From Oscillospiraceae bacterium (GTDB taxonomy: Bacteria; Bacillota; Clostridia; Oscillospirales; Ruminococcaceae): 64,000 bases of DNA. The notes under the pieces are model-generated. The model was not told the DNA's origin. It made no database searches and saw only the letters and a program-made list of their open reading frames with translations. Positions 39,101 through 58,331 of this stretch are shown in pieces. The translations under genes were made by a program, and so were the position numbers. Position 1 is the first letter of the stretch; each line of letters opens with the position of its first letter. The DNA is taken from contig JAGBCL010000046.1 of assembly GCA_018110825.1 (NCBI GenBank), forward strand, positions 3,064 to 67,063. Reading direction: 5' to 3'.

Positions 39101-40436
39101 CGAGAAATTCAAACCTGATTATGATACAAAATATAAAATGAGTGTTCAGTATAGTGCAGTTGCTGGTACTTGGAAGATTGAAAATGTAAAGGGCAGAGCA
39201 AAAACTAACTATTATGCTTCTCAGACATACGGAACAAGCCGTAAGAACGCATACGAAATCCTTGAAGCAATTCTGAATAATGGAGATTTGCAGGTTAAGG
39301 ACAGAGTTAAGGACGAGTACGGCAATGATGTTCGTGACGCTAACGGTAAGTACGTTCTTGTGGTAAATGATGAGGAAACAAAGGCTGTACGCAGATGTGC
39401 AAATATCATTAAATCAGAGTTTGAGGACTGGATATTCCAGGATCCCGAACGCCGTGAAGCACTGGTGCAGAAATACAACGAGGTATATAACTCAATCAGA
39501 CACAGAGAGTATGATGGTTCACATCTTCATTTTACGGGTATGAACACCGAAATTACTCTTAAAGATCACCAAAAGAACGCAGTCGCAAGAGGTTTGTACG
39601 GCGGTAACTGTCTGCTTGCACACGCCGTTGGTGCGGGCAAGACCTTTGAAATGATTGCTATTGCAATGGAAGGCAAACGCTTGGGATTACATAATAAGTG
39701 CCTGTTCGCAGTACCAAATTCTCTTACGGAGCAGATGGGTAATGACTTCCGAAAACTTTATCCTAACGCTAAAATTCTTGTTGCAACACTGAAAGACTTT
39801 GAAAAGCCAAACAGATTACAGCTTTTCGGTAAAATCGCTGCAAATGATTGGGATGCAGTTATCGTAGGACACAGCCAGTTTGACCGTATGGGACTTTCTC
39901 CCGAACGTGAAAAGTCATATCTTATGGCAGAAGTTGAAAAACTCCGTTATGAACTTGAAATGGCTGCTGCCGAAAATGACGGCAAAAAGAGCTTTACTGT
40001 AAAGCAGATTGAAAAATCCATTGCAAACTATGAGGATAAGCTGGAGAAGCTTAATGACGCACAGGTTAAGGACGGTTTTATTGACTTTGAACAGCTTGGC
40101 TTTGACAAGGTTTTCGTGGACGAAAGCCATATGTACAAGAACCTTGCAACAGCAACAAAAATGCACAATGTTTCAGGACTTGGAACAGGCGGTTCGGCAA
40201 GAGCATTTAATCTGCTGATGAAATCTAAATACCTTGATGAGCTTACGGGCGGACGTGGTTTGACATTTGCCAGTGGCACACCTGTTAGTAACTCAATGAC
40301 AGAGCTGTACACCCTTATGCGTTATCTTCAGGCAGGTATGCTCAAGGACCTGGGTATTAACCATTTTGATGAATGGGCAGCCGATTTCGGTGAGGTAAAG
40401 ACAGATTATGATTACAATTTATTGTGCACCACATAA
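30198..40436 (+). CDS. Giant polyvalent protein (N-terminal part), disrupted: repeat modules + YodL-like domain + N6-adenine methyltransferase + SNF2 helicase N-lobe
   Basis: AGGGAGG RBS. Two N-terminal copies of the module also found in the GGDEF protein. Two EFLKKEFGEDG / DFLKNEYGTGG domains. A YodL-like segment (YEIYQIP...FNIEQPKDFEGHSLSVSDVVVI). Methylase motifs LEPAIGIGNFFG and GNVPFGD. Helicase motifs HAVGAGKTF and VFVDESHMYKN. The last 8 codons and the stop (40413-40436) come from the inserted element. Confidence 0.85.
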   Translation: MTEYINKDFYKAIPPQERHYINLSGNNINDVIDRLNSEGIVFSATISNYKNVVTVHIADRERASAIAAEFTQKKSAELKIIGNTEYKYISDKRYINMDSETALKVAAVLSGDNNSRFSGRIVGDKATITVSGDKNAVAVRRIAENIKNMDLLTELEAAGFERVNINGFDDFVHFKNKATGAIEGFDGLDMVRDMFYDTESEFFHPTAYKIDLASDAYNDVYFISAYDLTTGNVKVPYLKEDGEIVTFSSVTDAVNYGYKNEIPFTNPPEEIAEWRTIDENRENKSISEENAERISYFPMQNGLYPDHIRYNEKDNSFYWVYFNPDADNGDGAFIEKYISESDIYAAYKAREESENEAEGNTAFINYIFENCRENAIDTSTAYFEDYANDYINRPENTAEFYGIGAESIYVEEVTAFITLLEENCPSVVKDKQTNKSKDVLDLNSDNIEIEGYTGTWYVIEAEHIKGKDLFLLESEYYGDEAACLIVDGERNLVMDDVHNGFSDYLERISVPENQMIIPDEDAQEMWTYDFDVYMNGEKLPPFIEGEYERNRQIYAAMVEKENIVSAVKEDVSTYHNADSIATTVFEISESYNGTPVAGEPYYLYLDENYEDYEWQNWKKEYNSYQNTMYSLTHGLAQNVEDYLLNVVSDTLVVAQRERALANVKLVSLFKTEEQKEVTEEAPVTQPDEELSYQEQLFERVNEEYNTFISEIRQESADVLIQSAAAIVDKDRIRLYLKEFTPELTDEQYEALLSRKYPLDEIYEQWVKNGELNGLEDVGIALEETADRILISLGREQPAAPVIEEAPVNNVEYGYINWNGFDKQKYDELVSNVKNHISGTDYAFLFVDKELYNYQLELNIRELGDEWALDYDIYDNEAEEYIHCGGYYESAEFPSFEIFISDIEANVRTAFETREHESKQQEEQKQQFVFMVEQYGETAFFRNDEMTVERLKRECVSAEKPFLYCIEHGSRISGITFAEISQSDNGLAVEVNVDNQEMRVYNNDIAETYSFDEIRKENRRAEIAERLDLENNKLTFSVVSIDGEEEFVMGGFADSDRVTETDEYINFIDSHDVDNVTVRVDFYIVGNGDIESQDMSEEQAAYVQQHLDDVLEIADSLDVQSYDIEPEIDYDIEEDEPSELDKAIAYINDYVSKEFDIEASVVSDENLEHVSLGYTELGDNAEYPFQVEADLKNFAINYYISGNLMRTDKYDFLDELIERELENLEFDYFVSEGNSLLEEMLEKEAELSPVEQAKKYISEYVGKIYDKNEDFEDMKNIPIDHFVIDVLEENVFNMDVDLEAFAVTYKINGDVTLTEQYNSVEEMNEELLSQLNYTTNRATAGRLLKEYKHKQYEEQSKNVEAAVKADIKPDTFIEPEKMPLYTKDYNAAKAANEMDVYIANLKENRACREAIDKAINEHYSDNRLNSSAALESVMQNYTFERIAHVVAARVYHNEWDIRITKDNVEWGKELFAELSSDARQMANQYQLTSHPGLIDLFANTVRKEIDRVREQEQSIPENTVTAESETVKDNYADAPVRKGFTSNTAPTMNMIDHILRCGSNEPYSLERIVRQFQKNKSVEENAEFLKKEFGEDGRGYIINEYSEFNVSAWFNEKGITVAVGETAYPSGSKAHISWEEAANRIKVMLEKGNYCSQEIIDNARNNDIKDIANKLGYLRQDSNIRPFFIPDYFFDGGYYEATDKIAEALHEIAPLDEIAEGLSSFIEMYEKNPEVMRFHYHKPAELLERINDLRAEYNRGKVKFEYPEFKTNVDFAFEPKHFITEDEKDWLLLSGSGVVGGKFRIQGFFNQDHNAKEKADFLKNEYGTGGVGRSWYSSNHDSKGIDLTKGREANKCKAEMKWGEVVKRIDRLVEADVYISPKDIENRIRDAKRDISRGNYADSYDKHVMDNAMKILDEYGIEYEMPQAVIEAKKNTYEIYQIPRGEQYHDLRFLRYAQLEKAGQKPDPKNYEKVYSGNLDDIPYANKLEGIFTVFNIEQPKDFEGHSLSVSDVVVIDDENGKHAYYCDSVGYKDITDMFLNRSTQTIEQPAEEETEKVNAEPAVTIGVIEKYGLEIDFNSIVGVDIESEELTYIGGIDSDGHERKDNYGVNYVTTSYDYADVLYKTIYINGELERYADVTLSDVLASVEEALDERNKVYINHKDGTRELIYTKKLLEAKEKAEQEQQNETAPQRKSGDEVEVGDKFLYKDREYTVTSMLGVYPNDVGVSYFEQSSFRTYQVTSNIDRYELANNGVYLGNPEKEERLAQQTEIYEPRINDVIEYEEQLFNVIDVSNGRVTLQEADSFFGRTITVPETDLITSDSLVVVQGNVKNVEKQNVPEVPTGTNYVITDDNFGVPGGAKARYADNVEAIKTLKQIEAENRTATAEEQQILSKYTGWGAIPQAFDMSNEKWKEEYAELKELLSPEEYSAARHSTMNAHFTSPVITSAIYEGLKNLGFESGKILEPAIGIGNFFGTLPEEMRNSKIYGVELDSLTGRIAQQLYQTADIQIKGFEQTTFADNSFDIAVGNVPFGDYKVNDRKYNDMHLLIHDYFAVKMLDKVRPGGIVAFVTSKGTLDKENPEIRKYLAQRAELLGAIRLPNNAFKANAGTEVTSDIIFLQKRDRPIEINPDEVEWLNKSETADGFSVNNYFVQHPEMVLGKIAEAKHIYGPTENTQVLPVEGADLKQQLAEAVKNIKGNYVVGELEENKDIDEIPAPANSRKYSFYAVDGNLYYREAEDTMRKVEVPKDTLNRAVGLIELRDNVRELLDLQLENSDGTLDGDIAESRKKLNERYDSFVAKYGNVSDRKNAKAMQGDDGYNIVSALEIKDEKGQVTGKSEIFTQNTVKPKLLATHVETAQEALILSVAEKAKVDFEYMTELCGMSKETLVSELKGQIYRLPQEKEKYVTADEYLTGNIRKKLHELENAPEDMDISENRTALENAMPPRVEAKDISVKLGAHWVDPKYIADFIIEKFKPDYDTKYKMSVQYSAVAGTWKIENVKGRAKTNYYASQTYGTSRKNAYEILEAILNNGDLQVKDRVKDEYGNDVRDANGKYVLVVNDEETKAVRRCANIIKSEFEDWIFQDPERREALVQKYNEVYNSIRHREYDGSHLHFTGMNTEITLKDHQKNAVARGLYGGNCLLAHAVGAGKTFEMIAIAMEGKRLGLHNKCLFAVPNSLTEQMGNDFRKLYPNAKILVATLKDFEKPNRLQLFGKIAANDWDAVIVGHSQFDRMGLSPEREKSYLMAEVEKLRYELEMAAAENDGKKSFTVKQIEKSIANYEDKLEKLNDAQVKDGFIDFEQLGFDKVFVDESHMYKNLATATKMHNVSGLGTGGSARAFNLLMKSKYLDELTGGRGLTFASGTPVSNSMTELYTLMRYLQAGMLKDLGINHFDEWAADFGEVKTDYDYNLLCTT

Positions 40437-40570
40437 ATTACAGCAGATTATGACGAACCATTCAAAATTTCGTACTGTGAAATGTTATCGGTATATTGTC
40501 AGGAGGATGCTTTACTCTTCATATGATGAATATGCTTTGATAATATTCGGATGAGGACAAATAATTATAA

Positions 40571-40606
40571 GAGCGAGTTGTCAGTTCATAAAATGGCAGC
40601 TCGCTC
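40571..40606. terminator. Bidirectional stem-loop terminator
   Basis: GAGCGAGTTGTC pairs with GGCAGCTCGCTC (12 bp, two G-U pairs). It is followed by TTTTT on the + strand and preceded by an A/T run, and it lies just downstream of the minus-strand helicase gene. Confidence 0.7.
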
Positions 40607-40615
40607 TTTTTATAA

Positions 40616-43459
40616 TCATCCTATCTCATTTTTTAACAATGCTATGTCCTGACGGTTATCAATGGGTTTGATTCTTCCAAGTATCTTCTGTTCAACGGAT
40701 TTCGACCAATATATTTTTAATCTTTTCTTAGCACGAGTAATTGCTGTATAAAAAATACTGTGAGTGATCATTTCATCTATCTCATCAGTTATAACAATTT
40801 TAACAGAATCATATTCCAATCCTTGTGCTTTATGAATTGAAACAGCATAAGCAATCTGAAAAGGAATGGTTGTTTTGGAAGTTTCATCGTCATCTTCATC
40901 AGTACTTTGGTTTTTGTATACTTCAAATCGAATAATAGAATTTCCTTCACTATTTGTTCCAATGATTATAAAGTTACGCTTCTCCATATTTAATTCAATG
41001 AGGGGTTTATCAAGTTCTATATCAAATTGGATTGATTCATTTGCTTGTCCATCATTTAAAACTCTGAAATCTACTATCTTGGCTTTCATATTATTATGGA
41101 TAATCGGAACTTCATCTGAATTATTGCTGAAGAATAAATCTGCTGAATCATTAAACAATATAGGGTCACCAACTTTATACCTTTGTATACCACGGTATAT
41201 TTCTTTGCCACTATTGTTTTCTTGCATGAAATGATTAATGTTATTTATTCCATATAAACCGCCATAATTCAGACAGAGAATAATTTCGTTATCGGCAGCA
41301 GGCGTAAAAATTGAAGTATCCAGATTTGCTGAGAATTCACCTGCTTGTAATCTATCAAGAACATCACTATCATTTAAATCCCCTTTCATTTTTCTGACGT
41401 TCTCCCATAGGCCTAACAGTTGTTTACTTTCCGTTCTAAATGGCACAGTCAACTCACATACAGATGTTTCGGGAATAAAGAATCGTACAGCGTTAAACCA
41501 ATTACCAAATTCAATAGCCTCTATTTGATATATATCGCCTACCAATACCAAAAGTTTGTATTTTGCAAGACGCAATAATTCTCTCATGTCCTGATTATTA
41601 ACTGTACTACACTCATCAATTATAAGAATGTCATAATCTCTTTTTATATCTTTAGCATATGGATTATTGAATTTGGTGATAGTCATAAAATCGCATTTTG
41701 ATGATGCAGATATTTTTCTTTTAAGATTATTTACTGCTGGATTCGTATGAGCTAAATATAACCGTGAGTAATCCTTAAAAAACGTTGATATATAATTAAT
41801 CAAAGTTGTCTTTCCAGTTCCTGCTGCACCGTAGATTAGTGCAACCTTGGAGTTATCAAACATTTTTATCAAAGCAATTTTTTTCTCGTCAGAAACATCC
41901 GTATGATCTTGAGTCTCTACCCAGTGCTTCACTGTGTTTGAATAATTTTCTATTCCACTAACAGTCAAATTCTTTATAATTTCAATTATAGAGACAGTGT
42001 CATCTTTATAGCTTTCTATAAAGATATAATCATTTTTGATTATCAGCTTGCGTGCCTGCTGTGTTTCGTTGCCATATAGTTTGCTATTATAGATTCTTAC
42101 AAGCTCTTCGATATCATCAAAGTATTTATATTTATGGACGACACTATCTTCATTTCTCTCCAAAGGTGTAAACAAGATTCCTTTTTGTTCAGTATTATTT
42201 CTGATAATCCAAGCTAAAACCTCATGTTCACGTCTGGATACGTCGAAACAATCAAATATATCAGAAATGCTTGGCACATGTTTTTTTAGAGAAGAACAAA
42301 ACGGCATTTCATCAAAAGGAATGCATTTATAATCTAAATAAAGATCAGAGAGCTTAAAATTGCCACCTATATATTCTTTACAATTTCTTTGATAATCCCA
42401 TTTCCAATGTTCCTTGTATTGTGCCTTAATTATTCTATTTGTCATGTGGAATAATAAATATCTAAGTACATTAGCACCAGGACGTTCATTCTTTACAAGA
42501 TCTCTACAAAAATTAAGAATATCAAAGAAAAAATTTGATTTTGAATTTGGGACAATCTGACTGCGCAAACTAATAAAGTCATCATCTGATATATCAAGTA
42601 TTTCAGATAAGTTCCCACCTGTTTTGGTCAAGTATTGAGATAAGTTTTGCTGTTCAGTTCTTGAAAGTTTTGGCGCATTCTTGTATATAATCTTTGCAAA
42701 ATTATCATATTCACATGGACGAATGTTTACTTCCCAATTAACAATAACTCTTATAGGCATTGTCTTGTCAAAGATTTCGATAAAATTATTAGCTATGGCA
42801 AGTTTAACAGCATAATAATCTGATAATTCAATATCGGTGAATGCAATTATTCGATCTGTTTTGCTTGCTTTATCATTTGCTGGTATGAATGCAACCTCAT
42901 AGTACACTTTGTTATTTACAAAAAATGGTTTGATTGATTGAATATAAAATCGGTCTAACCTAAAGCCATCTTTTATTGGAGCACAGTAAGAATCTACTTT
43001 GCTTGCAATCTTTTCGTAGTATTCTTTATAATTATCGTCTACTTCAATTGGAAATTTTTCGAGATTGTGAAGAACCTCCATTGAATAATTATCATGAAGG
43101 TAATTCTTTATTCTTAAAAGATACTCATAGTATTTGAGCATTAAGCGAGTTGAATTTTCTTCTGCTAAAGTTCGATGAGATATTGATACCTGTAAGTAAC
43201 TATGAAATCGTGCTATATGTTTTAATTTCATCTGACTTTTAACGTACTTCACTGCTTTTTTAACATTTTCATGAGAATCTTCAATGTCATTTCCGTCAGC
43301 ATAAATTTTTAAAATAATATGTTCAACAAAATGACGAAGCTGAGAAAGAATATCCTGAGATATTTCTCCTACAGAAGTTTTTTCTACACTATCAATATGA
43401 CGACAGATGACTTTATCGCTATTCATGATCTGCTCGTCAATACGTGAAGGTATATTCAT
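40616..43459 (-). CDS. SF1B (RecD/AAA_30 + UvrD_C-like) helicase with a ~530-aa uncharacterised N-terminal region
   Basis: Walker A YGAAGTGKTT, Walker B ILIIDECS, motif III VLVGDIYQ, and C-terminal AVSIHKAQGLEYDSV and YTAITRAKKRL. An AAGGAGAA RBS is present. Confidence 0.8.
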   Translation of the reverse strand: MNIPSRIDEQIMNSDKVICRHIDSVEKTSVGEISQDILSQLRHFVEHIILKIYADGNDIEDSHENVKKAVKYVKSQMKLKHIARFHSYLQVSISHRTLAEENSTRLMLKYYEYLLRIKNYLHDNYSMEVLHNLEKFPIEVDDNYKEYYEKIASKVDSYCAPIKDGFRLDRFYIQSIKPFFVNNKVYYEVAFIPANDKASKTDRIIAFTDIELSDYYAVKLAIANNFIEIFDKTMPIRVIVNWEVNIRPCEYDNFAKIIYKNAPKLSRTEQQNLSQYLTKTGGNLSEILDISDDDFISLRSQIVPNSKSNFFFDILNFCRDLVKNERPGANVLRYLLFHMTNRIIKAQYKEHWKWDYQRNCKEYIGGNFKLSDLYLDYKCIPFDEMPFCSSLKKHVPSISDIFDCFDVSRREHEVLAWIIRNNTEQKGILFTPLERNEDSVVHKYKYFDDIEELVRIYNSKLYGNETQQARKLIIKNDYIFIESYKDDTVSIIEIIKNLTVSGIENYSNTVKHWVETQDHTDVSDEKKIALIKMFDNSKVALIYGAAGTGKTTLINYISTFFKDYSRLYLAHTNPAVNNLKRKISASSKCDFMTITKFNNPYAKDIKRDYDILIIDECSTVNNQDMRELLRLAKYKLLVLVGDIYQIEAIEFGNWFNAVRFFIPETSVCELTVPFRTESKQLLGLWENVRKMKGDLNDSDVLDRLQAGEFSANLDTSIFTPAADNEIILCLNYGGLYGINNINHFMQENNSGKEIYRGIQRYKVGDPILFNDSADLFFSNNSDEVPIIHNNMKAKIVDFRVLNDGQANESIQFDIELDKPLIELNMEKRNFIIIGTNSEGNSIIRFEVYKNQSTDEDDDETSKTTIPFQIAYAVSIHKAQGLEYDSVKIVITDEIDEMITHSIFYTAITRAKKRLKIYWSKSVEQKILGRIKPIDNRQDIALLKNEIG

Positions 43460-43663
43460 ATTTATCTATTCTCCTTTCAAGATTTAGAATCTGTTTTTTA
43501 AAGAGCTACAAGTATTTTTTTACATACAGCTCTTAATTATAATGAATCTTTGCTTAGCAATTCATACGGTTGCTCGTAATGACATCCTGTACTTTTGATA
43601 GAACTCGGAATTAGGTTCCTAAAAGGAGCGAACCTGAGGATTTATTCTATCTACTATATGTTA

Positions 43664-44968
43664 TTATAAAGGTAATTCAACATCAGCTATTACCCAACCA
43701 TTATCTTCATATAAATCAAAAATTCCATTAACTTTTTCAATCTCACTCAAAACATTTTTAAGCCCGATACCATGATATTTTTCATCTGATTTTGATGTTT
43801 TTGGTAAATTATCAGAAGGCAATACTTTTATAGCGACCTTATTTTGGATAGTTAATCGGATATTTTTTTCATCACTGATAATCGACAAGCGAATTTCTTT
43901 TGTGTCCTCTTTCAGTTCTGCTTCAATCGCATTATCAATAAGATTTCCGAATATTATGCATAAAAGAAAATCATCAATTTCCGGCAAATCAGTCTGCAGA
44001 TAACACTTTAGATCAATACCTTCCTTCTTACAAACTGTTTTCTTTACATTCAACATTGCATCAAGTGCAGGATTGCTTGTTTGTGTTATATCAATAACAT
44101 TATCAATGCTTTTCTGCATTTTTTCAATGTATTGTTGTATCGATAAATAATCGTTGTTATCAGCATATTGTTTTATTATCAAAAGATGATTATTCATATC
44201 ATGGCGCAGAGATCGTATAGAATCATTCCATTCAAGCATTTCTTTCAGCTTTTTCTCATCATCACGAAGACGTGTTTCCAACATTATACGATTTTGTTCT
44301 GAAATATTCTTTTTTGAAATTTCTGCTGCAATATAAATAAACAAAACTATTATTGCGGATAAACAAAAAATTATTATAGTAGCATATGTTCTTGTCACCG
44401 CATCATCAAGAAGCATTTTTTCTATAATTACTCCTATAATTATCGCAAGAAGGAACACTGTGATTGCACTGATACTTTGCCCGATATGTAGTGAATAATT
44501 ATTTTTAGTTATTATTTTGCTCATAGTCATAAGCAGTGCAGCCAAAGCAAACTTTGATAGAAATAGTAAAAAAATTCTGGCTGGATTGCGCATAAGCAGA
44601 ACTTCCGAGTAGCTGTTATCCAAAACCGTACTTGAACATGAAAGAATAATTATATTAATCAAAAAAACTGTAATTATTGACACAAGGGATAATATTGCTT
44701 GTGTCCACCATTTACCTTTCAGCATAGCTCTGGAAAAGATGAATAGAAGCAGAGTATATGATACTGAAAATATATGTTCATGGCTAAAAAGAACATTAAT
44801 TTTATCCCAAAACAAAGCATTGGTAATTATAAGAATAATAAAACCAATAGTTCCGATAATTCTTTCTATTTTTGACATTGATTTATATTGCAAAGAAGCA
44901 ATAAGAAATACACATAAAATGATACTTTCTATTCCGGTAGCAATATATTCACTGACTGTATATATCAA
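43664..44968 (-). CDS. AgrC-like (HPK10, GHKL) sensor histidine kinase
   Basis: Six to seven N-terminal TM helices, H-box SLRHDMNNHL, N-box GNLIDNAIEA and G-box HGIGLKNV. A 4-nt overlap couples it to the response-regulator gene. Confidence 0.85.
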   Translation of the reverse strand: MIYTVSEYIATGIESIILCVFLIASLQYKSMSKIERIIGTIGFIILIITNALFWDKINVLFSHEHIFSVSYTLLLFIFSRAMLKGKWWTQAILSLVSIITVFLINIIILSCSSTVLDNSYSEVLLMRNPARIFLLFLSKFALAALLMTMSKIITKNNYSLHIGQSISAITVFLLAIIIGVIIEKMLLDDAVTRTYATIIIFCLSAIIVLFIYIAAEISKKNISEQNRIMLETRLRDDEKKLKEMLEWNDSIRSLRHDMNNHLLIIKQYADNNDYLSIQQYIEKMQKSIDNVIDITQTSNPALDAMLNVKKTVCKKEGIDLKCYLQTDLPEIDDFLLCIIFGNLIDNAIEAELKEDTKEIRLSIISDEKNIRLTIQNKVAIKVLPSDNLPKTSKSDEKYHGIGLKNVLSEIEKVNGIFDLYEDNGWVIADVELPL

Positions 44969-45678
44969 ATCAATAACCTCCTTCTTGCTTTAGCATATGC
45001 TTCTCGTACCGATTGCATTTTTCTTCTGCTGACGTAAAGCACTGTTTCATTCGGAAGTATAATTTTGTCATTATCTATTTTAATAATAGTTGTATTGACT
45101 ATTGTACCTGAATTTATATAAATGAAATCTTTGAATTGAGACTGATCCATAAAGAATGAAAGAGTGTTTCGTGTAGTAATAATACTTCCGTCTTTCATAT
45201 GTATAAGAATGTTATGGTTATTGCTCTCCAAATATTGTATGTCATGAACAAGTACCAAATATTCTTTTCCACCGTTTTTTCGCAGTTCAGTTACTAATAC
45301 TGTTGCTGTCTCCTTCTCTATTTCTTTTTTTAAGGTTTCATATGCAAATTTCAACTCATTTTCGAGATTTCTTTTACGAACAAATCCTACAGCGTGGTAA
45401 CGAAAAGCATGAAATACAAGATCATCCTTTCCTGTAACAAAAACTATACGTACATTGCTGTTGCAATCATATAATAAATTACTAAGCTCAAATCCATTCA
45501 TTGCAGGCATATCTATATCAAGAAAACATGCATCATACTTTTGATCAGAAAAGTTTGATAATAACACAGAAGGGTCGCTGAAAGCTTCAATAACGGCACT
45601 GTTATCTGAAATTTCTTCTAAAGTACTAACAACTTTTTTGAGTACCGGTAATTCGTCATCCAAAACAGCGAAAATCAT
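44965..45678 (-). CDS. LytTR-family response regulator (AgrA-like)
   Basis: Receiver domain (FLDIDMP, VFVTG) plus a C-terminal LytTR region (IQYLESNNHNILIHMKDG...). Confidence 0.85.
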   Translation of the reverse strand: MIFAVLDDELPVLKKVVSTLEEISDNSAVIEAFSDPSVLLSNFSDQKYDACFLDIDMPAMNGFELSNLLYDCNSNVRIVFVTGKDDLVFHAFRYHAVGFVRKRNLENELKFAYETLKKEIEKETATVLVTELRKNGGKEYLVLVHDIQYLESNNHNILIHMKDGSIITTRNTLSFFMDQSQFKDFIYINSGTIVNTTIIKIDNDKIILPNETVLYVSRRKMQSVREAYAKARRRLLI

Positions 45679-45761
45679 TTAATCACCCCATTTGTACTAA
45701 TTACATTATAACAGAATTATATTAATAAAACAATAGCACTTACAAAGTATTATAAACATTT

Positions 45762-45831
45762 TTACCAATTACGACATATAATTACCAGTTACGACACAAA
45801 TATTGATTTAACTGATTTTGAATGCTATAAT
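45762..45831 (+). promoter_or_regulatory. LytTR-type direct repeats plus a sigma-A-like promoter upstream of agrB
   Basis: TTACCAATTACGACA (45762-45776) and TTACCAGTTACGACA (45782-45796) have a 20-nt start-to-start spacing. They are followed by TTGATT (45803-45808), 17 nt, TATAAT (45826-45831). Confidence 0.65.
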
Positions 45832-45857
45832 TTCAAAAAACAAAAGGTGAAAAGATT

Positions 45858-46457
45858 ATGATTGCTGAGTTATCATCGCAAATTGTTGCAACCCTTTTAA
45901 ACAATAAAATTATAACATATAAACAGAAGGATGTATACCAGTACGGGTTTGAGATATTGATTTCATCCGTTATAACCTTTCTTATTGTATTGGTTTGTGG
46001 ATGTATTTTTAATTGTATTATTCCTTCTTTTATATTTTTTGTATTATTTGTAATTCTCCGCTCTATATGCGGAGGATATCATGCGTCAAATTATTTAAGC
46101 TGTAATTTAATTTTTGGATTTGTTACTATAGGTGTACTAATGTCGTACAAATATATAAATATTGAAGTGTTCTCTGATTTACATTATTTTATATGTATGC
46201 TTTCATTTATTTGTGCAATAATTTATTCTCCTATTGAAAACGAAAATAAACATTTAACAACAGCTCAAAAGAAGAAATTTCGTATTCTTGGAACGGTTTT
46301 GGTATTGATGTTTTCATTAGTATCTACTGTTATTAAGATAAAACTACAATCATCGTATACCATATTAATGGATATGACTCTTTTGGTTGTGTCAATTTTT
46401 ATGGTTGTTGTGAAACTAAAGAAGGGAGGGAACAAAACAGAGATGTCAGGTTTGTGA
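45858..46457 (+). CDS. agrB: AgrB-family membrane peptidase
   Basis: Polytopic membrane protein carrying the LRSICGGYHASNYLSC motif, which contains the catalytic His/Cys context of AgrB. Confidence 0.8.
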   Translation: MIAELSSQIVATLLNNKIITYKQKDVYQYGFEILISSVITFLIVLVCGCIFNCIIPSFIFFVLFVILRSICGGYHASNYLSCNLIFGFVTIGVLMSYKYINIEVFSDLHYFICMLSFICAIIYSPIENENKHLTTAQKKKFRILGTVLVLMFSLVSTVIKIKLQSSYTILMDMTLLVVSIFMVVVKLKKGGNKTEMSGL

Positions 46458-46546
46458 CGATGTTATAGATTCTTCCACGTTTAATGTTGAGGATCACAGT
46501 GCTTGGAACTAGAACTAATCATCAAATTTAATATAATTTAAATTCA

Positions 46547-46576
46547 GCAGTAACAGGAAAGATTTTCTGTTACTGC
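46547..46576 (+). terminator. Perfect 10-bp stem-loop after agrB (weak T-tract)
   Basis: GCAGTAACAG, 10-nt loop, CTGTTACTGC. The sequence that follows is CGAATATTAT, so this is not a canonical T-run. Confidence 0.4.
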
Positions 46577-46596
46577 CGAATATTATAGGTGAAGTT

Positions 46597-49830: not shown

Positions 49831-49885
49831 TTCTCATAAGTTGAAACCCACACAAATACGTTATTACAACCGAATATACAAGAAA

Positions 49886-49920: not shown

Positions 49921-49969
49921 TTTAATTTTGCCTATAAATATATAAAAAAGACATCGTAATTTACATTTT

Positions 49970-50146
49970 GATGTCAAAATCAAAGTCAATCAGTCTGCAA
50001 TGCAGTAAAATGACGTCATAATCCGAAAAATGACGCATATCAGACGTCAATTTCCTGTCAAAAAGACGTCAAACCGAGAAATTTCAGCTGTGATAGAATA
50101 GAAATCAAGATAAGGAACGTCAAATCAATCGGATACGATGTCACTT
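49970..50146 (+). repeat. Array of direct GTCAA-core iterons (parC-like centromere/operator)
   Basis: Seven same-orientation GTCAA-core copies of (A/G)(A/T)(C/G)GTCAA(A/T)(A/T), plus GTCA-only or degenerate copies (GACGTCATAATC, GATGTCACTT, GACGCATATC). Examples: GATGTCAAAATC, AAAGTCAATC, GACGTCAATTTC, GACGTCAAACC, AACGTCAAATC. The array lies immediately upstream of tnpW-parM-parR. Confidence 0.65.
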
Positions 50147-50204
50147 ATCAAAAAGTACATTTCCGGCCGGACTTGTAACTTTCAAATAATACAGGAGGCA
50201 GAAA

Positions 50205-50381
50205 ATGAATGAAAGAACATACAATCCACTCGGAACTGAACACAGCATAACTATCGGTAAAACAACATTTACGGTAAATTCTTTTGCTGATACAAATTCA
50301 ACTGTTACAGCAGAAGAGCTTATCATCAGAATGTTAAAATCAAAGGTTAAAGATACGTCAAAGGAGGAAAAAACAGCATGA
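50205..50381 (+). CDS. TnpW-like small transposon protein (58 aa, not in the ORF track)
   Basis: AGGAGG RBS. The pattern ITIGKTTFTVNSF...TAEELIIRMLKSKV matches the IG-TT(Y/F)-V ... (I/L)(L/I)R(L/M)(I/L) pattern of Clostridial TnpW proteins. An ATGA overlap couples it to parM. Confidence 0.5.
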   Translation: MNERTYNPLGTEHSITIGKTTFTVNSFADTNSTVTAEELIIRMLKSKVKDTSKEEKTA

Positions 50382-51307
50382 TTCCATATAATAATTCTAT
50401 CATTATTCCCGTTGATACAGGATACGGAAATATCAAAAACTCTCTGCATTCTTTTCCGACAGGAATTACGGAATACAGCACAAAGCCTGCTTTTGAGGGC
50501 AGGATTCTTCATATCGGAGATAAGTATTACCGCATCGGCGAAGGTCATAAGGAATATATCCCCGATAAAACCATCGACGAGGAGTTTCGTCTGTTGACCA
50601 TTGCTGCAATCTGTGACGAGTGCCGCAGCTGCGGATATTATGAAGGCAATATCTACCTTGCGGTAGGTTGCCCTACTGCAATGCTTGCGGCTCAGCGTGA
50701 AAGCACAAGAGGGTATTTTCTCAGTAATCCTCATATCGACTGCGAGTATAATAACAAGCATTTTGTGCTTGAAATTGTCGGCTGTTTTGTTTATCCGCAG
50801 GGATATGCGGCGGTCACGGAGCACCTTCATAATATGACAGGTGTTAATATGATTATCGACATCGGAAACGGTACTGCGAATATTCTTCAGATCAATAACA
50901 AGCGTGTAATTGAAGATAAATGCGTAACAGAAAAGCTGGGTGTAAATCAGTATATGATTGCTGTGCAGAAAGCGGTTATGGCTCGGTTCGGCAAGAAAAT
51001 TGATACTGAAATTGTTGAGCAGTTTATCAGAAACGGGAATACAGACGCTCCCGATGAATACAGAAAGATTTTCATTGATGAAGCAAAGAAATATTGCAAA
51101 AAGCTCTTTGATGCGCTTTCCCGTTGCGAGTATGATCCCGACTTTATGAAGCTGTATATATGCGGCGGTGGCGGTCGGCTTATCAGACAGTTCAGCAGAT
51201 ATAATTCCGACAAAACTGTTTTCATTGATGATATTTGCGCTGCTGCAAAGGGTTATCAGAAGTTTACATTAAAGACGCTTAAATCCCTTGAAAAGAGGTC
51301 TGAATAA
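50378..51307 (+). CDS. parM: ParM/StbA-family actin-like segregation ATPase
   Basis: Phosphate-1 motif IPVDTGYGNIKN and phosphate-2 motif IIDIGNGTANI. YICGGGG is an adenosine-motif-like segment. Confidence 0.8.
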   Translation: MIPYNNSIIIPVDTGYGNIKNSLHSFPTGITEYSTKPAFEGRILHIGDKYYRIGEGHKEYIPDKTIDEEFRLLTIAAICDECRSCGYYEGNIYLAVGCPTAMLAAQRESTRGYFLSNPHIDCEYNNKHFVLEIVGCFVYPQGYAAVTEHLHNMTGVNMIIDIGNGTANILQINNKRVIEDKCVTEKLGVNQYMIAVQKAVMARFGKKIDTEIVEQFIRNGNTDAPDEYRKIFIDEAKKYCKKLFDALSRCEYDPDFMKLYICGGGGRLIRQFSRYNSDKTVFIDDICAAAKGYQKFTLKTLKSLEKRSE

Positions 51308-51636
51308 TGAAGCAAATCAAAAGAATCACACTCAGACTGTCACTGGATAAACAGAAGGATAAAGCAGTTGCGGACTTTCTTTCGCAACTTGATAAGTCTG
51401 AATATCGTACAGTAAATAGTGCAATAAAAACAATCCTGTATTCATTTATTAAAAACGGTATTTCAGAAAAATCCGATACAAGTGAAATAATTTCGGTAAT
51501 CAGATCAACCATTGAAACGGAATTGACACGACTATTTTCAGAATTCGTATCGCATAATACACATAATGTTATTTCAAAAGATAAACCTAAAATATCCTCC
51601 GACGACGATATTGATATGAGCTTTATAGGAGAATAA
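51307..51636 (+). CDS. ParR-like RHH adaptor (by position and N-terminal strand-helix pattern)
   Basis: 109 aa. An ATGA-type overlap couples it to the parM stop. The N-terminal KRITLRLSLDKQKDKAVADFL is RHH-like. Confidence 0.5.
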   Translation: MKQIKRITLRLSLDKQKDKAVADFLSQLDKSEYRTVNSAIKTILYSFIKNGISEKSDTSEIISVIRSTIETELTRLFSEFVSHNTHNVISKDKPKISSDDDIDMSFIGE

Positions 51637-51638
51637 AA

Positions 51639-52187
51639 ATGATGACAGTCAAGGAGCTTTGCAGGAAATATAATCTGAAATATCAGACAGTTTACAGGAA
51701 AATTTCCGCTCATAAAAAAAACGAGCTTGCAGGACACATCATAAAAGAAAATGGCGAAAGCCTTGCCCTTGATGATTATGCAGTGGATTTTCTTACGCCT
51801 TTTAATGTCAAGGTCATTCAGGCGGTTGAGGAATGTGAAGCAGTTATCAGAGAAAACAGCGATTTGAAGGATAAGCTGTATGCTGCTGAATGTAATCTCC
51901 GACGGGCAGAAAAAAGAGTATCTGATATTACTGCCGAAAATGAAAAGCTGAACGCCGAAATTAATGTGCTTACAGATGAATTATCAGATAAAGGCAAAAT
52001 AATCAAAGAGCTTGAATTTCAGTGCAATAATTACCGTCAGAAAATATCCGAACTTGAACAGGGTGCGGATAATTCTGAGTGCCGTATCTCTGAACTTGAA
52101 AAAATAATTTCAACCTTGGCAGAAGAAAACAGACTTCTTACCGAAAAGTATGAAGCTGTCCCCAAAATATTCAGAAAAAGTCAGTAG
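51639..52187 (+). CDS. HTH + long coiled-coil protein
   Basis: The N-terminal MTVKELCRKYNLKYQTVYRKI is excisionase/MerR-like HTH in character. The remainder is heptad-rich. Confidence 0.45.
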   Translation: MMTVKELCRKYNLKYQTVYRKISAHKKNELAGHIIKENGESLALDDYAVDFLTPFNVKVIQAVEECEAVIRENSDLKDKLYAAECNLRRAEKRVSDITAENEKLNAEINVLTDELSDKGKIIKELEFQCNNYRQKISELEQGADNSECRISELEKIISTLAEENRLLTEKYEAVPKIFRKSQ

Positions 52188-52224
52188 AAAAAGCTATTCT
52201 CTGCGGTAGAAAAATATTCGCATT

Positions 52225-52310
52225 ATGAGAAATGCAGAGTATTTTCATCGCAGAGAATATAGCATGATTTTAGCAAGCATTGATTTTGTTGCCACAAAAT
52301 CGGTAACGGA
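52225..52310 (+). other. oriT-like region upstream of the element's mobC (hairpin GATTTTGT-TGCC-ACAAAATC at 52282-52301)
   Basis: An inverted repeat sits directly 5' of the mobC-relaxase pair. It is homologous to the inverted copy at 49700-49830. Confidence 0.6.
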
Positions 52311-52320
52311 AAGGAGCATT

Positions 52321-52650
52321 ATGAACAGAGATAATTTCATAAAAATAAGAGTCACGGCAGATGAAATGTCTGTTATAAAAAAGAGGGCGGAAAATGCAGG
52401 AATGAATGTTAGCAAGTTTATCAGAACGCTTGTTCTCAACGGTAAAATAATTCTGTATGACACAGAAAATATTTACCGTTTTAATCAGCTTATGCGTTCT
52501 GTGGGAACAAATATAAATCAGATTGCGGCAGTTGCAAATTCGGAGAAAAGTGTGTATAAAAATGATATTGATTCACTCCGCAGAGAAATAGAGAAAATAT
52601 CGGCTGATTTTAAAAGCTGTATTTCTCCGCTTAAAAGCAACGAAATATAA
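52321..52650 (+). CDS. mobC: MobC-type relaxosome accessory protein (element copy)
   Basis: The ATG at 52321 has an AAAGGAG RBS (the track start at 52225 reads through the oriT-like repeat). VTADEMSVIKKRAENAGMNVSKFIR and INQIAAVAN are MobC motifs. Confidence 0.8.
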   Translation: MNRDNFIKIRVTADEMSVIKKRAENAGMNVSKFIRTLVLNGKIILYDTENIYRFNQLMRSVGTNINQIAAVANSEKSVYKNDIDSLRREIEKISADFKSCISPLKSNEI

Positions 52651-54195
52651 ATGGCATACATAAAGCATACCGCAATTCACACAACACCAAAAGCACATCT
52701 GAAATATATCCTGAATCCTTCCAAAAATGAGGATCTGAAGTACACTACCGCAATTTGCTGTACAAACGAATTAAACGCTGCCTATGAGGATTTCAAGGAA
52801 ATTTATGAAGCATATGCAGGTCATAAATTCGATATTCGCCATAAGCGAAAAAATGAAAGCGTCCGTATTCATTCATATATACAGTCATTTGATGAATCTG
52901 TTTCGGCTGAGACAGCACATAAAATAGGCGTTGAATGGGCGAAAGCTATGTTTGGTGAAGATCGCCCTATTATAATTTCAACACATACAAACACAGGACA
53001 TTGTCACAATCATATAGCCGTTTGCGCTTATGATGTCAGAGGCAACAGATGGCTTGCCGACAGAAAAACATATCAGCTTGCAAGGGATATTTCCGATAAA
53101 ATCTGTCTTGAACACGGTCTTGAAATCATAAAAAATCCCAAGAAAAAAAGTAATCTGAATTACAAGGAATGGGACGCACGTAAAAAGGGGTGTTCGTGGA
53201 AAATAAAAATGGCTGATACTATTGACAAGCTGATTATCTCGCCCGATGTTACCGATATAGATTCTCTTATTGAAAAAATGCGTGAGCAGGGATATGTTTT
53301 CACAAACGAAAAGCGACTGATCGCAAAGCCTGCAAACGTTAAATATGGCTGTTCATTTGCCAAGCTTGGTTACGGTTATTCTTCCGAAATGCTTATGCAG
53401 AGAATTATAAACAAGCAGAACGAATTTGCAGGATTAAAGATAAGTGCATTACTCGGTATTCAGGTTGAGCTTGCGGTCACGCTCCGTGAAAAGCAAATTG
53501 AAATTTATCGTTCCAAAACACATTATAACAGCTATGCAGAAGTGAAAAGAAGTGCTGATCTTCTGCAATTTATTCATCGTAACCATATTCACTTGCTTGA
53601 TGATATGAAAACGTTGGTAGCTAAGGCAGAAGTTACTGTAAATAAGTTGAATAACAGGTATTCTCAGATTGAACGAGATGAAAAATTGTTTGAACTTCTT
53701 AATCAATACGGTGATGAATATGCTGAACTGCTGAATACTTCCAACCGTAGTGAACATCAGCAGAAACGGCTTGAAATTCTTTACGGTAAGCTTTTACATG
53801 GTGGAATTATTATGCGTGATACTCATTCTCCCGATTGGCTTTCAAAGCTGAAAAGTGAGCTTAAGGACAGCATTTCTGAAAAGAAAAAAATATTTACTGA
53901 AATGAATAAGGCAGTAAGCGAATGCAATAAAATGAGAAATTATCTGCATAAAACAGAGGATATTTTAGAATCCGATTATGAGAGAATATATCGTCAGGAA
54001 CACTTGAAAAAGCAGATAGAAATGTATCATCAGGGTTATGAGCCGCAGGAAAACGGTACATATATCCGTGAGCCGGAGCCTGCTTTCGCAAGAAATTCCG
54101 AGCTTGAATATCTTGAAAAAAGACGTATTGCAGAGCTTGAAAAACTCAGGACTGCCGAGATAAACAACCGTAGAATCAGCACTTATTCAAGATAG
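52651..54195 (+). CDS. Relaxase/mobilization nuclease (element copy)
   Basis: HTNTGHCHNH histidine cluster and YIQSF. It is collinear with the relaxase at 368-1825 along the whole N-terminal domain. Confidence 0.85.
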   Translation: MAYIKHTAIHTTPKAHLKYILNPSKNEDLKYTTAICCTNELNAAYEDFKEIYEAYAGHKFDIRHKRKNESVRIHSYIQSFDESVSAETAHKIGVEWAKAMFGEDRPIIISTHTNTGHCHNHIAVCAYDVRGNRWLADRKTYQLARDISDKICLEHGLEIIKNPKKKSNLNYKEWDARKKGCSWKIKMADTIDKLIISPDVTDIDSLIEKMREQGYVFTNEKRLIAKPANVKYGCSFAKLGYGYSSEMLMQRIINKQNEFAGLKISALLGIQVELAVTLREKQIEIYRSKTHYNSYAEVKRSADLLQFIHRNHIHLLDDMKTLVAKAEVTVNKLNNRYSQIERDEKLFELLNQYGDEYAELLNTSNRSEHQQKRLEILYGKLLHGGIIMRDTHSPDWLSKLKSELKDSISEKKKIFTEMNKAVSECNKMRNYLHKTEDILESDYERIYRQEHLKKQIEMYHQGYEPQENGTYIREPEPAFARNSELEYLEKRRIAELEKLRTAEINNRRISTYSR

Positions 54196-56480
54196 TTATT
54201 TTCCCATTCCTTCGGATATTGTACACCGAATTTGTTGAGTAGTGCAGCCGCAAGAACTTTTCTTGCCTGCACCTCATCGGTACTGCCGAGTGCGGTTAAT
54301 TCTTCAAAAGCTTTGTTGTAATATTTTACTCCAAGAGCAGTTTTTCCTGTTCTGATATAAATTCCCGCAATGTCATAAAAAATATTTGCGTGGTTATTTG
54401 AACGGCAGCCATCTGTAATTTCTGCACATTCAAGGAGTATTTCAAGTGCTTTATGAGGGTCGGAATTTTCCGTTAATGCTGCCGCATAATTTCTTGAAAT
54501 TGTTATAAAATCGTCGTTATATGAACGGCTTGATCGGATAAAACACCAAGCCTTTTCCATAAATCCAAGACCACGTTCTGTTTCCTTATTTTCGATGTAC
54601 AGAACACCTAAATTCATGTTGATATTCGCAAACAAAACTATATTTTCCGATTTATCACAGAGAGAAAGTGCTTTGTTCATCAGGCTTATTGAATATGTAA
54701 GTTTTTCGTTTCTGTTCATAGGCAGCATAGCCTTGTTGTTCAGAAGTAACGCACGGTTATTCTGTGTTCCGATGTATTCATCATCAAGCAGCTTTTCTGT
54801 TTCGGAAATTATTATTTCCATAAAAGCATATTCATGATAATTATCGAGAAAAACGTATGCGCTTTCAAGAATATTCAGATAGGAATTTTTGTCCGTTTCA
54901 CCGATAAATTTCATTATATTTTTTACCGTAGAAATTATTACAGCTGAATCGGGCAGTTCATATCCGATTATTTTCAGTTTGGTGTTTACCGCATTTATCA
55001 GCGTATTGCAGTTTCTGAAATCAGGCTTTAAATCAAGCAGAACAATGTCCTTTATCATAGGGTGGAGTGTGATAATATCGGCGTGAGTGTTGTTGATAAA
55101 TCCAAGCTCGCACAGTTCATTTATTCCGTTTGTATCGTTCAGTTCAAGCATTTTTGCAAAATATCTGATACGCATCTCATCAAAGAAAATCATATTTCTC
55201 ATTACATTCTGATAATCTTCACTGAGCAGATATAACGAAAAAAGAGTACGGATATGATTATAGTATGTAGCCCTTGTGTTTTCACCGTCCTTATTGATTT
55301 TTATTTTATCCGATGATTCGGGATCGGCACTGTTTATTATAAGATGTTCAAGAATTTCATCGGGCGTATGAATTCCTTTTTCAAGAAGCTTTCCTATCAT
55401 TTCAACGGATAAAGTATGACTATGGACAGCTTCGATAAGCTTAATTATTGTAGACTTATTTTCATCGGCATAGGTAAAATACTTGCTTACAAGCAGATAC
55501 AATTCATCGGGATTTTTTATAGCATCAAGTTCAAAAATATGCCCGTATTCAACATTACAGCGTGTTGTAAAAATCATCTTACAGCTGTAATTCAAAAGTG
55601 TGCTGAGAAAGCTGTCATTCGGAGAATTGAAGTTATCGATTATAATAAGCGAATCTGTTTTCAGGCTTTTCAGAAAGCGAATATGCTTTGTGAATTTTGT
55701 ATGTTCATCATCAGAAATACTATCGCCTGCAAATTCAATATCAGCTATCATTTCTTTCAGATCTCCGCTGTAATTGAAGTAGAGAATATTTTTATATTCT
55801 TTCTTGTATTTCTTTGCATAAGCTTTTGCAAATTCGCTTTTTCCAATTCCGGCAAAGCCTGTTACATATATTTCATTGTGATTTTGCAGTGCGGTATGAA
55901 GTTCTGTTGTTTCGTTGTCACGTCCGCAGAAATATTTACAGGGAGCAGGAACATCTGCACCAAAAATGTATTCGGAAGCTGTTATTGCAGAGGTTGGGAG
56001 CATAGCTTTATCAGCAGGGATAAAAGGGCGATCAATAGCCGTAAAAATAACGTTTCCGATAAATGAGCATATTTCATAATCTGTGTACTCAGATATATTC
56101 TGCGGTAATATTTCAGCTTTCTTTTCTTCTGAAAGAGTGTAATCATTTCTCACAAGATTTACAAGCTCATTATATAGATTGTGTTTATCAAAAACCAATT
56201 TAAGACAGTTTTCCTGAAAGCTGTCACCGATAATATCGGAACCTTCTTTACGATAATAATTTACAACGATTGCAGGTATGGGTCGATTGCCCTTTATCCA
56301 TCGGCTGACTGCTGAATTATCAAATCTGACATCGTCATTTTCGGTATAGAAATCATAGAAAATATCGCACAGAAGGTCAAACTGAGAATATGCAGTTTCT
56401 CTGTTTTTTGTTGTGTGCATATTCTCACGGCAGTTCTCAATTATTATGTTTATCACTGTACTGAAATCTACTCTTTGCAT
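54183..56480 (-). CDS. STAND NTPase: unknown N-terminal domain + NB-ARC + TPR repeats
   Basis: FCGRDNETTEL, Walker A GFAGIGKSEF, Walker B LIIIDNF, a TTR motif, and HSHTLSVEMIG (GxP/GLPL-like). The C-terminal ~300 aa have TPR-like character. The N-terminus contains NSAVSRWIKGNRPIP, an HTH_XRE-like fragment. Confidence 0.7.
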   Translation of the reverse strand: MQRVDFSTVINIIIENCRENMHTTKNRETAYSQFDLLCDIFYDFYTENDDVRFDNSAVSRWIKGNRPIPAIVVNYYRKEGSDIIGDSFQENCLKLVFDKHNLYNELVNLVRNDYTLSEEKKAEILPQNISEYTDYEICSFIGNVIFTAIDRPFIPADKAMLPTSAITASEYIFGADVPAPCKYFCGRDNETTELHTALQNHNEIYVTGFAGIGKSEFAKAYAKKYKKEYKNILYFNYSGDLKEMIADIEFAGDSISDDEHTKFTKHIRFLKSLKTDSLIIIDNFNSPNDSFLSTLLNYSCKMIFTTRCNVEYGHIFELDAIKNPDELYLLVSKYFTYADENKSTIIKLIEAVHSHTLSVEMIGKLLEKGIHTPDEILEHLIINSADPESSDKIKINKDGENTRATYYNHIRTLFSLYLLSEDYQNVMRNMIFFDEMRIRYFAKMLELNDTNGINELCELGFINNTHADIITLHPMIKDIVLLDLKPDFRNCNTLINAVNTKLKIIGYELPDSAVIISTVKNIMKFIGETDKNSYLNILESAYVFLDNYHEYAFMEIIISETEKLLDDEYIGTQNNRALLLNNKAMLPMNRNEKLTYSISLMNKALSLCDKSENIVLFANINMNLGVLYIENKETERGLGFMEKAWCFIRSSRSYNDDFITISRNYAAALTENSDPHKALEILLECAEITDGCRSNNHANIFYDIAGIYIRTGKTALGVKYYNKAFEELTALGSTDEVQARKVLAAALLNKFGVQYPKEWENNYLE

Positions 56481-56549
56481 AATTTTCCCTTTCCCGATTT
56501 TTTATTTCAGTATAGCATAAATTTACACAAATTACAACAGAAAATATTG

Positions 56550-56567
56550 TGCGAAAACGTTTTCGCA
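56550..56567. promoter_or_regulatory. Perfect 18-bp palindrome TGCGAAAACGTTTTCGCA
   Basis: It lies in the divergent intergenic region between the STAND gene and the recombinase gene. Confidence 0.5.
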
Positions 56568-56573
56568 AATCTA

Positions 56574-56623
56574 TTGAATTCTTGCGGATTATGATGTATA
56601 ATGTATATAGTCATAATCTGCTG
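56574..56623 (+). promoter_or_regulatory. Recombinase promoter embraced by an inverted repeat of the GATTATGA motif
   Basis: TTGAAT (56574-56579), 17 nt, TATAAT (56597-56602). The arms are GCGGATTATGA (56584-56594) and TCATAATCTGC (56611-56621). Confidence 0.6.
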
Positions 56624-56636
56624 TTTGGAAAGGTAG

Positions 56637-58286
<1,650 letters not shown>

Positions 58287-58290
58287 AAAA

Positions 58291-58331
58291 ATGAACACAT
58301 ATCATTTTGGAGCACTATGATATGTGTTCAT
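58291..58331. repeat. 15-bp perfect inverted repeat straddling the right junction of the insertion
   Basis: ATGAACACATATCAT (58291-58305, element side) and ATGATATGTGTTCAT (58317-58331, overlapping TATGAT and the resumed host ORF), separated by an 11-nt spacer. Confidence 0.85.

Follow-up and report, generated by a model that had tools for sequence, protein, structure and literature searches.

What has split the giant methylase-helicase gene of a conjugative element in gut Clostridia, by what reaction did it enter, and would its departure make the gene whole again? These questions are raised by a 64,000-nt stretch of DNA from an Oscillospiraceae bacterium (the window, meaning the whole stretch that was analysed), in which a polyvalent gene encoding a methylase-SNF2 helicase is interrupted by an element of 17,924 bp (40409-58332, one TA copy counted). 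In this report, we provide evidence that this DNA is, very likely, a 17.9-kb integrative mobilizable element (IME) that was integrated by its own large serine recombinase into the Tyr3404 codon (TA/C) of the methylase-SNF2 helicase gene of an integrative and conjugative element (ICE) in gut Clostridia of the Oscillospiraceae/Ruminococcaceae type. A preliminary description of this DNA had already recognized a serine-recombinase mobilizable element nested in a conjugative element and interrupting the methylase-helicase gene, and to that extent it is upheld.

The interrupted gene and its empty site

The gene fragments, the element and its attachment sites are as follows.

30198..40408, + strand: polyvalent methylase-SNF2 helicase gene, fragment 1, residues 1-3404 to the TA of the Tyr3404 codon (YodL, DUF3849, LPD18, DUF3848, SNF2-rel and ResIII domains)
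40407..40408, no strand: left crossover dinucleotide TA, core of attL (attL approximately 40383-40433); contig L001 matches the window up to 40408
40409..58332, no strand: the IME (empty-site comparison with L001; near-identical copies in L006-L011)
40409..40433, no strand: P' arm of the attachment site of the element, TGATTACAATTTATTGTGCACCACA (attP symmetry scan)
40444..40459, no strand: attB-like sequence CAGATTATGACGAACC within the element, its 10-bp CAGATTATGA repeating 40402-40411 (direct reading)
58291-305 / 58318-332, no strand: terminal perfect 15-bp inverted repeat directly after the recombinase stop, its proximal arm being the P arm
58331..58332, no strand: right crossover dinucleotide TA, core of attR (att-site and relative-junction comparison)
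58333..59335, + strand: second fragment of the helicase gene (residues 3404-3739), which stops short of motif VI at ...HHLDAPMRPSD (homolog alignment)

The open reading frame (ORF) at 30198..40436 comprises 3,412 codons, of which the last eight are foreign, and ends ...GEVKTDYDYNLLCTT before its stop. Methylase motifs (GIGNFFG at residue 2465 and NVPFG at 2525) and helicase motifs (GAGKT at 3145, DESH at 3308 and GTPVSN at 3360) are present in fragment 1, and the insertion falls between helicase motifs III and IV. We regard the host as a conjugative element because the region upstream encodes a relaxase (359-1825), a type IV coupling protein (T4CP; 10631-12769), VirB4 (15878-18787) and TopoIII; a DUF3991/Toprim protein is encoded there as well, and the target itself is of the polyvalent class known from conjugative elements (PMC5512222).

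The precise ends of the element were revealed by a close relative of the ICE that lacks it. Positions 3567-3766 of contig L001 correspond to window 40309-40408 fused to 58333-58432, with 98% identity over 200 bp. The native protein at the site, in this near-identical empty site (which encodes homolog P0001) and in 13 uninterrupted homologs, is ...KTDY/ELKPE...; all 13 site-spanning homologs, which came from a search with the fused protein, read ...GEVKTDYELKPESDGK... (...FGEVKTDYELKPESDGKYQLKTRF...), without DMCSY. The attB of L001 is GGTAAAGACAGAT-TA-CGAACTTAAACC, attL is ..ACAGAT-TA-TGATTACAATTT.. and attR is ..ATGTGTTCA-TA-CGAACTT.., and the element is placed at 40409-58332 because TA (40407-08 and 58331-32) represents the only bases common to the three sites. 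The GC content is 30-37% in the element against approximately 41% in the flanking gene. This comparison shows that the insertion is real, where it lies and what a close relative looks like without it.

The terminal inverted repeat is maintained in the related contig L014 through compensatory changes. Its loop contains GGAG and its proximal arm supplies an ATG (58322) in frame with helicase fragment 2, which is where gene callers begin that fragment (P0012/P0013: MCSYELKPE...); this could permit, in this orientation only, separate expression of the C-terminal helicase piece. At the other end, the attB-like CAGATTATGACGAACC lies 42 bp from the crossover, repeats the B arm and the core and continues with CGAAC, resembling the B' arm. 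It has been kept in all element copies (L006-L009 and L011), possibly as a mimic of attB or as the scar of an old event.

Symmetry and orientation at the crossover

Which bases the recombinase exchanges was considered in terms of the reconstructed attP, ATGATATGTGTTCA-TA-TGATTACAATTTATTG, which contains the perfect palindrome TCATATGA. Dyad symmetry about TA amounts to 16 of 24 positions, versus 6 of 24 about the nearest GA and at most 11 of 24 about other centres up to 12 bases away; shuffled sequences gave 6.7 +/- 2.2 symmetric positions on average (P(>=16) = 5e-5). The outer motifs GGAGCAC in the P arm and GTGCACC in the P' arm mirror each other and are equidistant from the core.

Relatives of the element were collected by a recombinase scan of species-representative genomes and a P-arm sequence scan of metagenomes, which yielded approximately 20 junctions from recombinases 88-89% identical to that of the window. 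In the forward relatives (approximately nine distinct contigs), ...GTGTTC(A/G)-TA of the P arm leads into the B' arm, which reads CGAAyTwAAACC or, in a divergent helicase, TGAGCTGAAACC. In the reversed relatives (approximately six contigs), the P arm and TA are followed by ATCrGTyTTkACC, the reverse complement of the B arm, and the N-terminal part of the helicase lies on the opposite strand, ending at residue 3404/3405. Thus, approximately 15 relatives from independent assemblies occupy the identical codon in both orientations, a pattern expected only for a palindromic core. Across these junctions, the base after TA varies with the target (C, T or A) and the base before TA moves with the element. 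A serine-integrase site is known to owe its polarity to the central dinucleotide alone (Ghosh et al. 2003; Smith et al. 2004; both as cited in PMC3783163); together with this rule, a self-complementary TA predicts precisely the two orientations observed. The evidence, drawn from comparison of sequences, therefore points to the palindromic TA as the true crossover, and not to GA as had been proposed at the outset from the TnpX/TndX precedent. No description of a natural palindromic core in a large serine recombinase was found in a limited literature search, and one may still have been reported.

One metagenome-assembled genome (MAG), HGM13314, contains two copies of a related element at that helicase codon in opposite orientations (L012, CAAGCE010000075, and L014, CAAGCE010000284). 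In addition, a 16.7-kb MAG contig without helicase sequence, as far as it was read (L016, JAUNJJ010000084.1), joins the P arm to kinase/LytTR cargo DNA via the 10-bp palindrome TTCATATGAA, whose centre is again this TA, and this junction possibly resembles the attP of an excised relative. The P arm and TA are also found beside non-helicase DNA in L094/L095, L096, L104 and L112, where the neighbours include a GDSL-like gene, the inside of a nicotinate phosphoribosyltransferase gene, a cell-wall peptidase gene and phage-like genes (an IMG/VR contig); these are possibly secondary chromosomal or phage sites, or other uses of the recombinase lineage.

Mobility and a model for integration

The element is present on at least 10 contigs from several samples (L006-L011 among them), 99-100% identical and with identical attL; SAMN15830108, SAMN15829958, SRR12529195 and SRR12529201 are among the carrier samples. 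On L008, it is 99% identical within an ICE backbone that is just 90.6% identical and contains an extra group II intron. The same element is thus observed in two different ICE backbones, and its relatives are observed at the same codon in both orientations.

Our data suggest a model whereby the recombinase brings together a pseudo-palindromic attP of approximately 50 bp and the attB of the helicase gene, cleaves both at the central TA with a 2-bp stagger and, after rotation, rejoins the ends. A self-complementary TA would render parallel as well as antiparallel synapses ligatable and integration orientation-blind, and recombination between attL and attR may either excise or invert the element. 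The model predicts a circular joint of ...ATGTGTTCATATGATTACAATTT... / ATGATATGTGTTCATATGATTACAATTTATTG, with T between TA and GA (...GTTCATATGATTAC...), an empty site consisting of GGTAAAGACAGATTA, C or T, and GAACTTAAACC, and, after inversion in place, the junctions AAGACAGATTATGAACACATATCAT and reverse-complemented P' joined to TACGAACTT. The excised circle would be nicked by its own NikA-like/MobA-type relaxosome and exported via the T4CP and type IV secretion system (T4SS) of the host ICE, and targeting a conserved ICE gene would guarantee that the helper is present. Use of the ICE coupling protein by the IME would fit the similarity of the two relaxases (36% identity) and of the two accessory proteins (29%, with the ICE protein encoded by ORF 22-357). 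As in TnpX and TndX, the recombinase alone is probably sufficient for both directions of the reaction.

Several points weigh against this account. The circular joint or empty site of this exact element was not found in the same samples; attP is a reconstruction, and the candidate attP in L016 belongs to a relative on a contig read in part. The attB has almost no dyad symmetry (4 of 24). A palindromic core halves productive excision and departs from the textbook design of serine integrases. Transfer, an origin of transfer (oriT) and use of the ICE pore are steps that we infer. All of the evidence comes from metagenome assemblies or MAGs, in which chimeric joins are possible; yet each orientation occurs in several independent assemblies. 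The P' arm (GATTACAATTTATTGTGCACCAC) had no match in the JGI metagenome scan or IMG/VR; these pattern-searchable collections lack the exact element and therefore say nothing about its circular joint.

Further interruptions and alternative explanations

Would excision repair the gene? Under the TA crossover, excision of the element would rejoin fragments 1 and 2 scarlessly and in frame. The DNA beyond the element does encode more of the SNF2 helicase, as had been proposed, but not the whole missing part: only residues 3404-3739 are present, and the gene breaks again at 59335. Homologs continue after HHLDAPMRPSD with MEQRNGRIERQGN (motif VI), and the window, entering a second element, instead reads VEHLSGNIK... 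to a stop at 59479.

59336..64000, no strand: left-hand portion of a second serine-recombinase element, distinct from the first, with its insertion at GA 59333-34 and running off the window to approximately 73133 (coordinates of contig L110 + 52816)

This second element could be followed on L110, which matches window 52817-64000 at 100% identity and continues past its end. It spans approximately 13.8 kb, encodes YhcG/PDC-S02, an ECF sigma factor, DUF4367, a C39-like peptidase and a NikA-like protein (an ORF of the element at 62787-63971 has a called start at 62817) and ends with a 544-aa DUF4368 recombinase that is 36% identical to that of the first element. Its reconstructed attP is symmetric at 18 of 24 positions about GA (59333-34). 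Past it, the helicase resumes for approximately 80 residues (MEQRNGRIERQGN...KALCAG; L110 20318-20602) before a third break, which is followed by a LytTR regulator gene. Because database homologs are truncated at the KALCAG break with other tails (P0003, P0006, P0010 and P0014), this break is a third recurrent insertion site; these two points are both recurrent landing sites, as database proteins truncated there end in several different foreign sequences. With 40409-58332 removed, the reading frame would run no further than the stop at 59479, leaving out motif VI and approximately 440 residues. Loss of the first element on its own therefore cannot make the gene whole, as it is broken twice more downstream, and the gene-restoring switch initially proposed for this locus is not borne out.

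Group II introns add to this picture. Genes for group II intron reverse transcriptases break homologous polyvalent genes a few hundred bases upstream of the first site in three contigs (L001 882-2783, L004 8463-10001 and L008 9121-11013; window-equivalent approximately 39640-40147), and none is present in the copy of the window. One giant polyvalent gene can thus take several unrelated recombinase elements together with group II introns. We lean towards a view in which this recombinase lineage naturally has a palindromic TA and inserts and flips in either orientation, and in which the helicase gene is a shared landing pad with at least three recombinase sites, so that the host gene becomes intact only once several guests have gone. 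If true, this would represent a natural orientation-blind large serine integrase, a ready test of the central-dinucleotide polarity rule and a possible source of orientation-free integrases.

A regulated gene switch, whether skin-like or of the kind in which IMEs leave and the ICE then transfers, would require timed excision to rebuild the helicase gene. Streptococcal work discusses the idea that IMEs in snf2 leave before ICE transfer (PMC5357655 and PMC5704250, the former raising it for streptococcal ICEs), excision at TA is predicted to be scarless and in frame, and all three interruptions are recombinase elements or lie at recurrent sites. Nevertheless, three independent excisions would be required, the palindromic core would make inversion as frequent as excision, and ICESp2905 transfers with its snf2 disrupted (PMC5704250). 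A full mobilization module, divergent backbones and both orientations fit a parasite better than a domesticated switch, which we consider unlikely here. Equally, the ICE might have decayed, leaving the nested elements fixed, inactive and immobile, as the threefold breakage of the gene and the 100% identity of the interrupted arrangement in several contigs of one cohort would allow. Such a remnant would hardly be expected to retain an intact recombinase ORF and both att arms, to be polymorphic for presence and absence (L001 versus the window), to be 99% identical within a 90.6% identical backbone or to have relatives with many independent insertions, and we regard this explanation as quite unlikely.

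The crossover could in principle lie three bases to the right of TA, at GA 40410-11 / 58334-35 of the same element. The Tyr codon is TAC in L001 and TAT in L004 and L005, so that a progenitor attB of the form GATTAT-GA-ACTT does exist in nature, and GA crossovers are typical of TnpX/TndX and of the neighbouring second element; the circular joint would then be ...GTTCATACGATTACAA..., TA and GA being separated by C. This intervening base, however, tracks the target, being C in most forward copies and T in L092, and the reversed copies read TA and then ATC.... Reversed insertions at the same codon cannot use GA, since the reverse complement of attB has no GA there, and attP symmetry about that GA is the low value given above. 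We therefore rejected this crossover, given that the base after TA depends on the target, that reversed insertions exist and that the symmetry scan disfavours it, and consider it, and the joint that it predicts, highly improbable.

The proposal of the preliminary description, that the TATGAT hexamers at 40407-40412 and 58316-58321 bound the element and recombine at their GA, which TnpX and TndX use (PMC3158075, PMC5704250), to give ...TDYDMCSYELKPE..., can be dismissed almost entirely, because its fusion adds five residues (DMCSY) that are missing from 13 of 13 homologs and the empty site of L001, the empty site (...GATTATGATATGTGTTC...) and joint (...TTGGAGCACTATGATTACAA...) that it predicts occur in none of the 112 fetched loci, and relatives have AATGAT or AATAAT in place of the second hexamer. 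Its readings of the letters were accurate: the 3,412-codon ORF does end at 40436, and both hexamers are present in codon phase, the second 30 nt past the recombinase stop. With 50 copies on the + strand of the window, a TATGAT near that stop is unremarkable and carries little weight, and this copy falls within the terminal inverted repeat, 15 nt short of the true end. The continuous fusion was thus contradicted by the very homolog alignment suggested as its check, in which a five-residue gap appears. A short repeat beside a recombinase gene is not necessarily an att site; empty-site comparison shifted the joint by 15 bases and changed the core.

Gene content of the element

The IME encodes the following.

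40616..43459, - strand: 947-aa SF1 (RecD/UvrD-like) helicase, candidate single-gene anti-phage defence PDC-S53 (AAA_30, Viral_helicase1 and UvrD_C_2; PDC-S53 at 1150 bits over its full length)
43664..45678, - strand: two-component pair, GHKL sensor kinase (43664-44968) and LytTR response regulator (44965-45678), by domain match
45858..46457, + strand: AgrB-like peptide-processing protein (PF04647, 115 bits)
46597..49655, + strand: cargo of a solute-binding lipoprotein, a secreted M23 peptidase and a function-unassigned lipoprotein (domain matches)
50205..50381, + strand: 58-aa ORF, sub-threshold TnpW-like (PF14202, E = 0.015, 15.5 bits against a 25-bit cut-off)
50378..51307, + strand: actin-like (ParM/ALP) protein (MreB-like_C, ALP_N)
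52225..54195, + strand: mobilization module, NikA/MobC-like accessory protein (52225-52650) and MobA/VirD2-type relaxase (52651-54195; PF03432)
54183..56480, - strand: 765-aa STAND-like NTPase with TPR repeats (weak AAA_16/nSTAND and TPR_12 matches)
56643..58286, + strand: large serine recombinase of 547 aa, stop at 58284-58286 (Resolvase, Recombinase, Zn-ribbon and DUF4368 domains)

The recombinase scores 78.8 bits for PF00239, 73.7 for PF07508, 45.1 for PF13408 and 71.2 for PF14287, and direct reading places its catalytic serine in the context YCRLSRDD. It is 38% identical to annotated tndX over 97% of the query (E = 8e-113), which bears out its earlier assignment to the TnpX/TndX type and makes it a distant DUF4368 (TnpX/TndX) member, not an orthologue; it shares the domain set and full-length similarity of that group but not its GA crossover. 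Every match in the plasmid collection was below 60% identity, with no close relative there, and L110 encodes a protein identical to the recombinase of the window. No T4SS domains and no match to TnpV or TnpY were found among the element ORFs scanned. With TA direct repeats, an intact recombinase and relaxase and no VirB4 or T4SS genes, the element corresponds to an IME as defined by Coluzzi et al. 2017. The Tn4451-like gene set once ascribed to it is sustained only for the presence of a relaxase, which is of the MobA/VirD2 type (PF03432) and not the Mob_Pre TnpZ; the tnpW match is below its cut-off and TnpV is lacking.

The AgrB-like protein, GHKL kinase and LytTR regulator have the composition of an agr-like quorum-sensing module, as judged from their domains. 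Such cargo (AgrB, GHKL kinase, LytTR and often an M23 peptidase) recurs on different elements in this helicase gene (window 43664-46457, L005 1-2279, L016 7260-9186 and L110 from 20840 onward). A ParM/ALP gene on a mobilizable element raises the possibility of active partition of the excised circle. The 765-aa STAND-like protein had no PADLOC family match of note. Candidate anti-phage genes are present on all three nested layers: PDC-S53 on the IME, PDC-S02/YhcG on the second element (59446-60621, - strand) and a GmrSD-type Orf5/HEC-06 nuclease on the ICE (4964-6811, + strand).

Comparison with known systems

The nesting of mobilizable elements in snf2-type genes of ICEs is already known from streptococcal IMEs, Tn6104/Tn6105 and Tn1806, and our analysis adds uncultured gut Oscillospiraceae and Ruminococcaceae to the streptococci and C. 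difficile from which this pattern was known. In streptococci, serine-integrase IMEs such as IME_Spy2096_SNF2 and IME_SsuT15_SNF2 reside in snf2 of Tn5252-superfamily ICEs (Coluzzi et al. 2017, PMC5357655; review PMC5704250). Compared by their descriptions, these IMEs and the element of the window each have a relaxase, one serine integrase, no T4SS genes and very short flanking direct repeats, and insert site-specifically in a conserved ICE helicase gene, which they disrupt; the target in the window is likewise the conserved SNF2-helicase (methylase) gene of a conjugative element. In contrast, the host here belongs to gut Clostridia, the target is a 4,000-aa polyvalent protein, and a TA core and two orientations are not described for the streptococcal elements. 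Tn1806-like ICEs nest in the methylase-SNF2 gene (snf2) of ICESa2603-family ICEs, as shown by conjugation in 2026, and the nested element excises independently (PMC12942858). They share with the IME integration in the methylase-SNF2 gene of another ICE; these guests, however, are complete ICEs that have triple serine integrases and GG repeats, and the guest in the window is an IME that has a single integrase and a core of TA.

In Clostridioides difficile R20291, Tn6104 and Tn6105 are putative mobilizable transposons with large serine recombinases that lie in one ORF of the CTn5-like Tn6103 (Brouwer et al. 2011, PMC3158075), much as two recombinase elements share one ORF of a conjugative element in the window. 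The recombinase of Tn6104 is related to TnpX and the repeat of the element is 2 bp long; Tn6104 also carries a two-component system, sigma factors and a mobA/mobL gene, and was shown to excise. The loss of ICE transfer was attributed to the insertions (PMC3158075). Judged by description, Tn6104 differs in having its recombinase at the other end with a TnpV-like gene, which the IME of the window lacks, and in its cargo.

Tn4451/Tn4453 (TnpX) and Tn5397 (TndX) resemble the IME in their DUF4368-type recombinase and 2-bp crossover. Unlike Tn4451/Tn4453, the element of the window has a core of TA and not GA, is highly site-specific where Tn4451 is loosely so, carries a MobA/VirD2-type relaxase with a NikA-like partner in place of TnpZ (Mob_Pre/MOBV), lacks catP, TnpV and TnpY and has only a sub-threshold TnpW match. 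As in skin and SpoIVCA-type elements, a large serine recombinase element splits a gene that scarless excision would rejoin at that point; unlike them, the element of the window has no sign of developmental control and retains mobility genes, and its excision alone yields no intact ORF, further breaks remaining at 59335 and after ...ALCAG.

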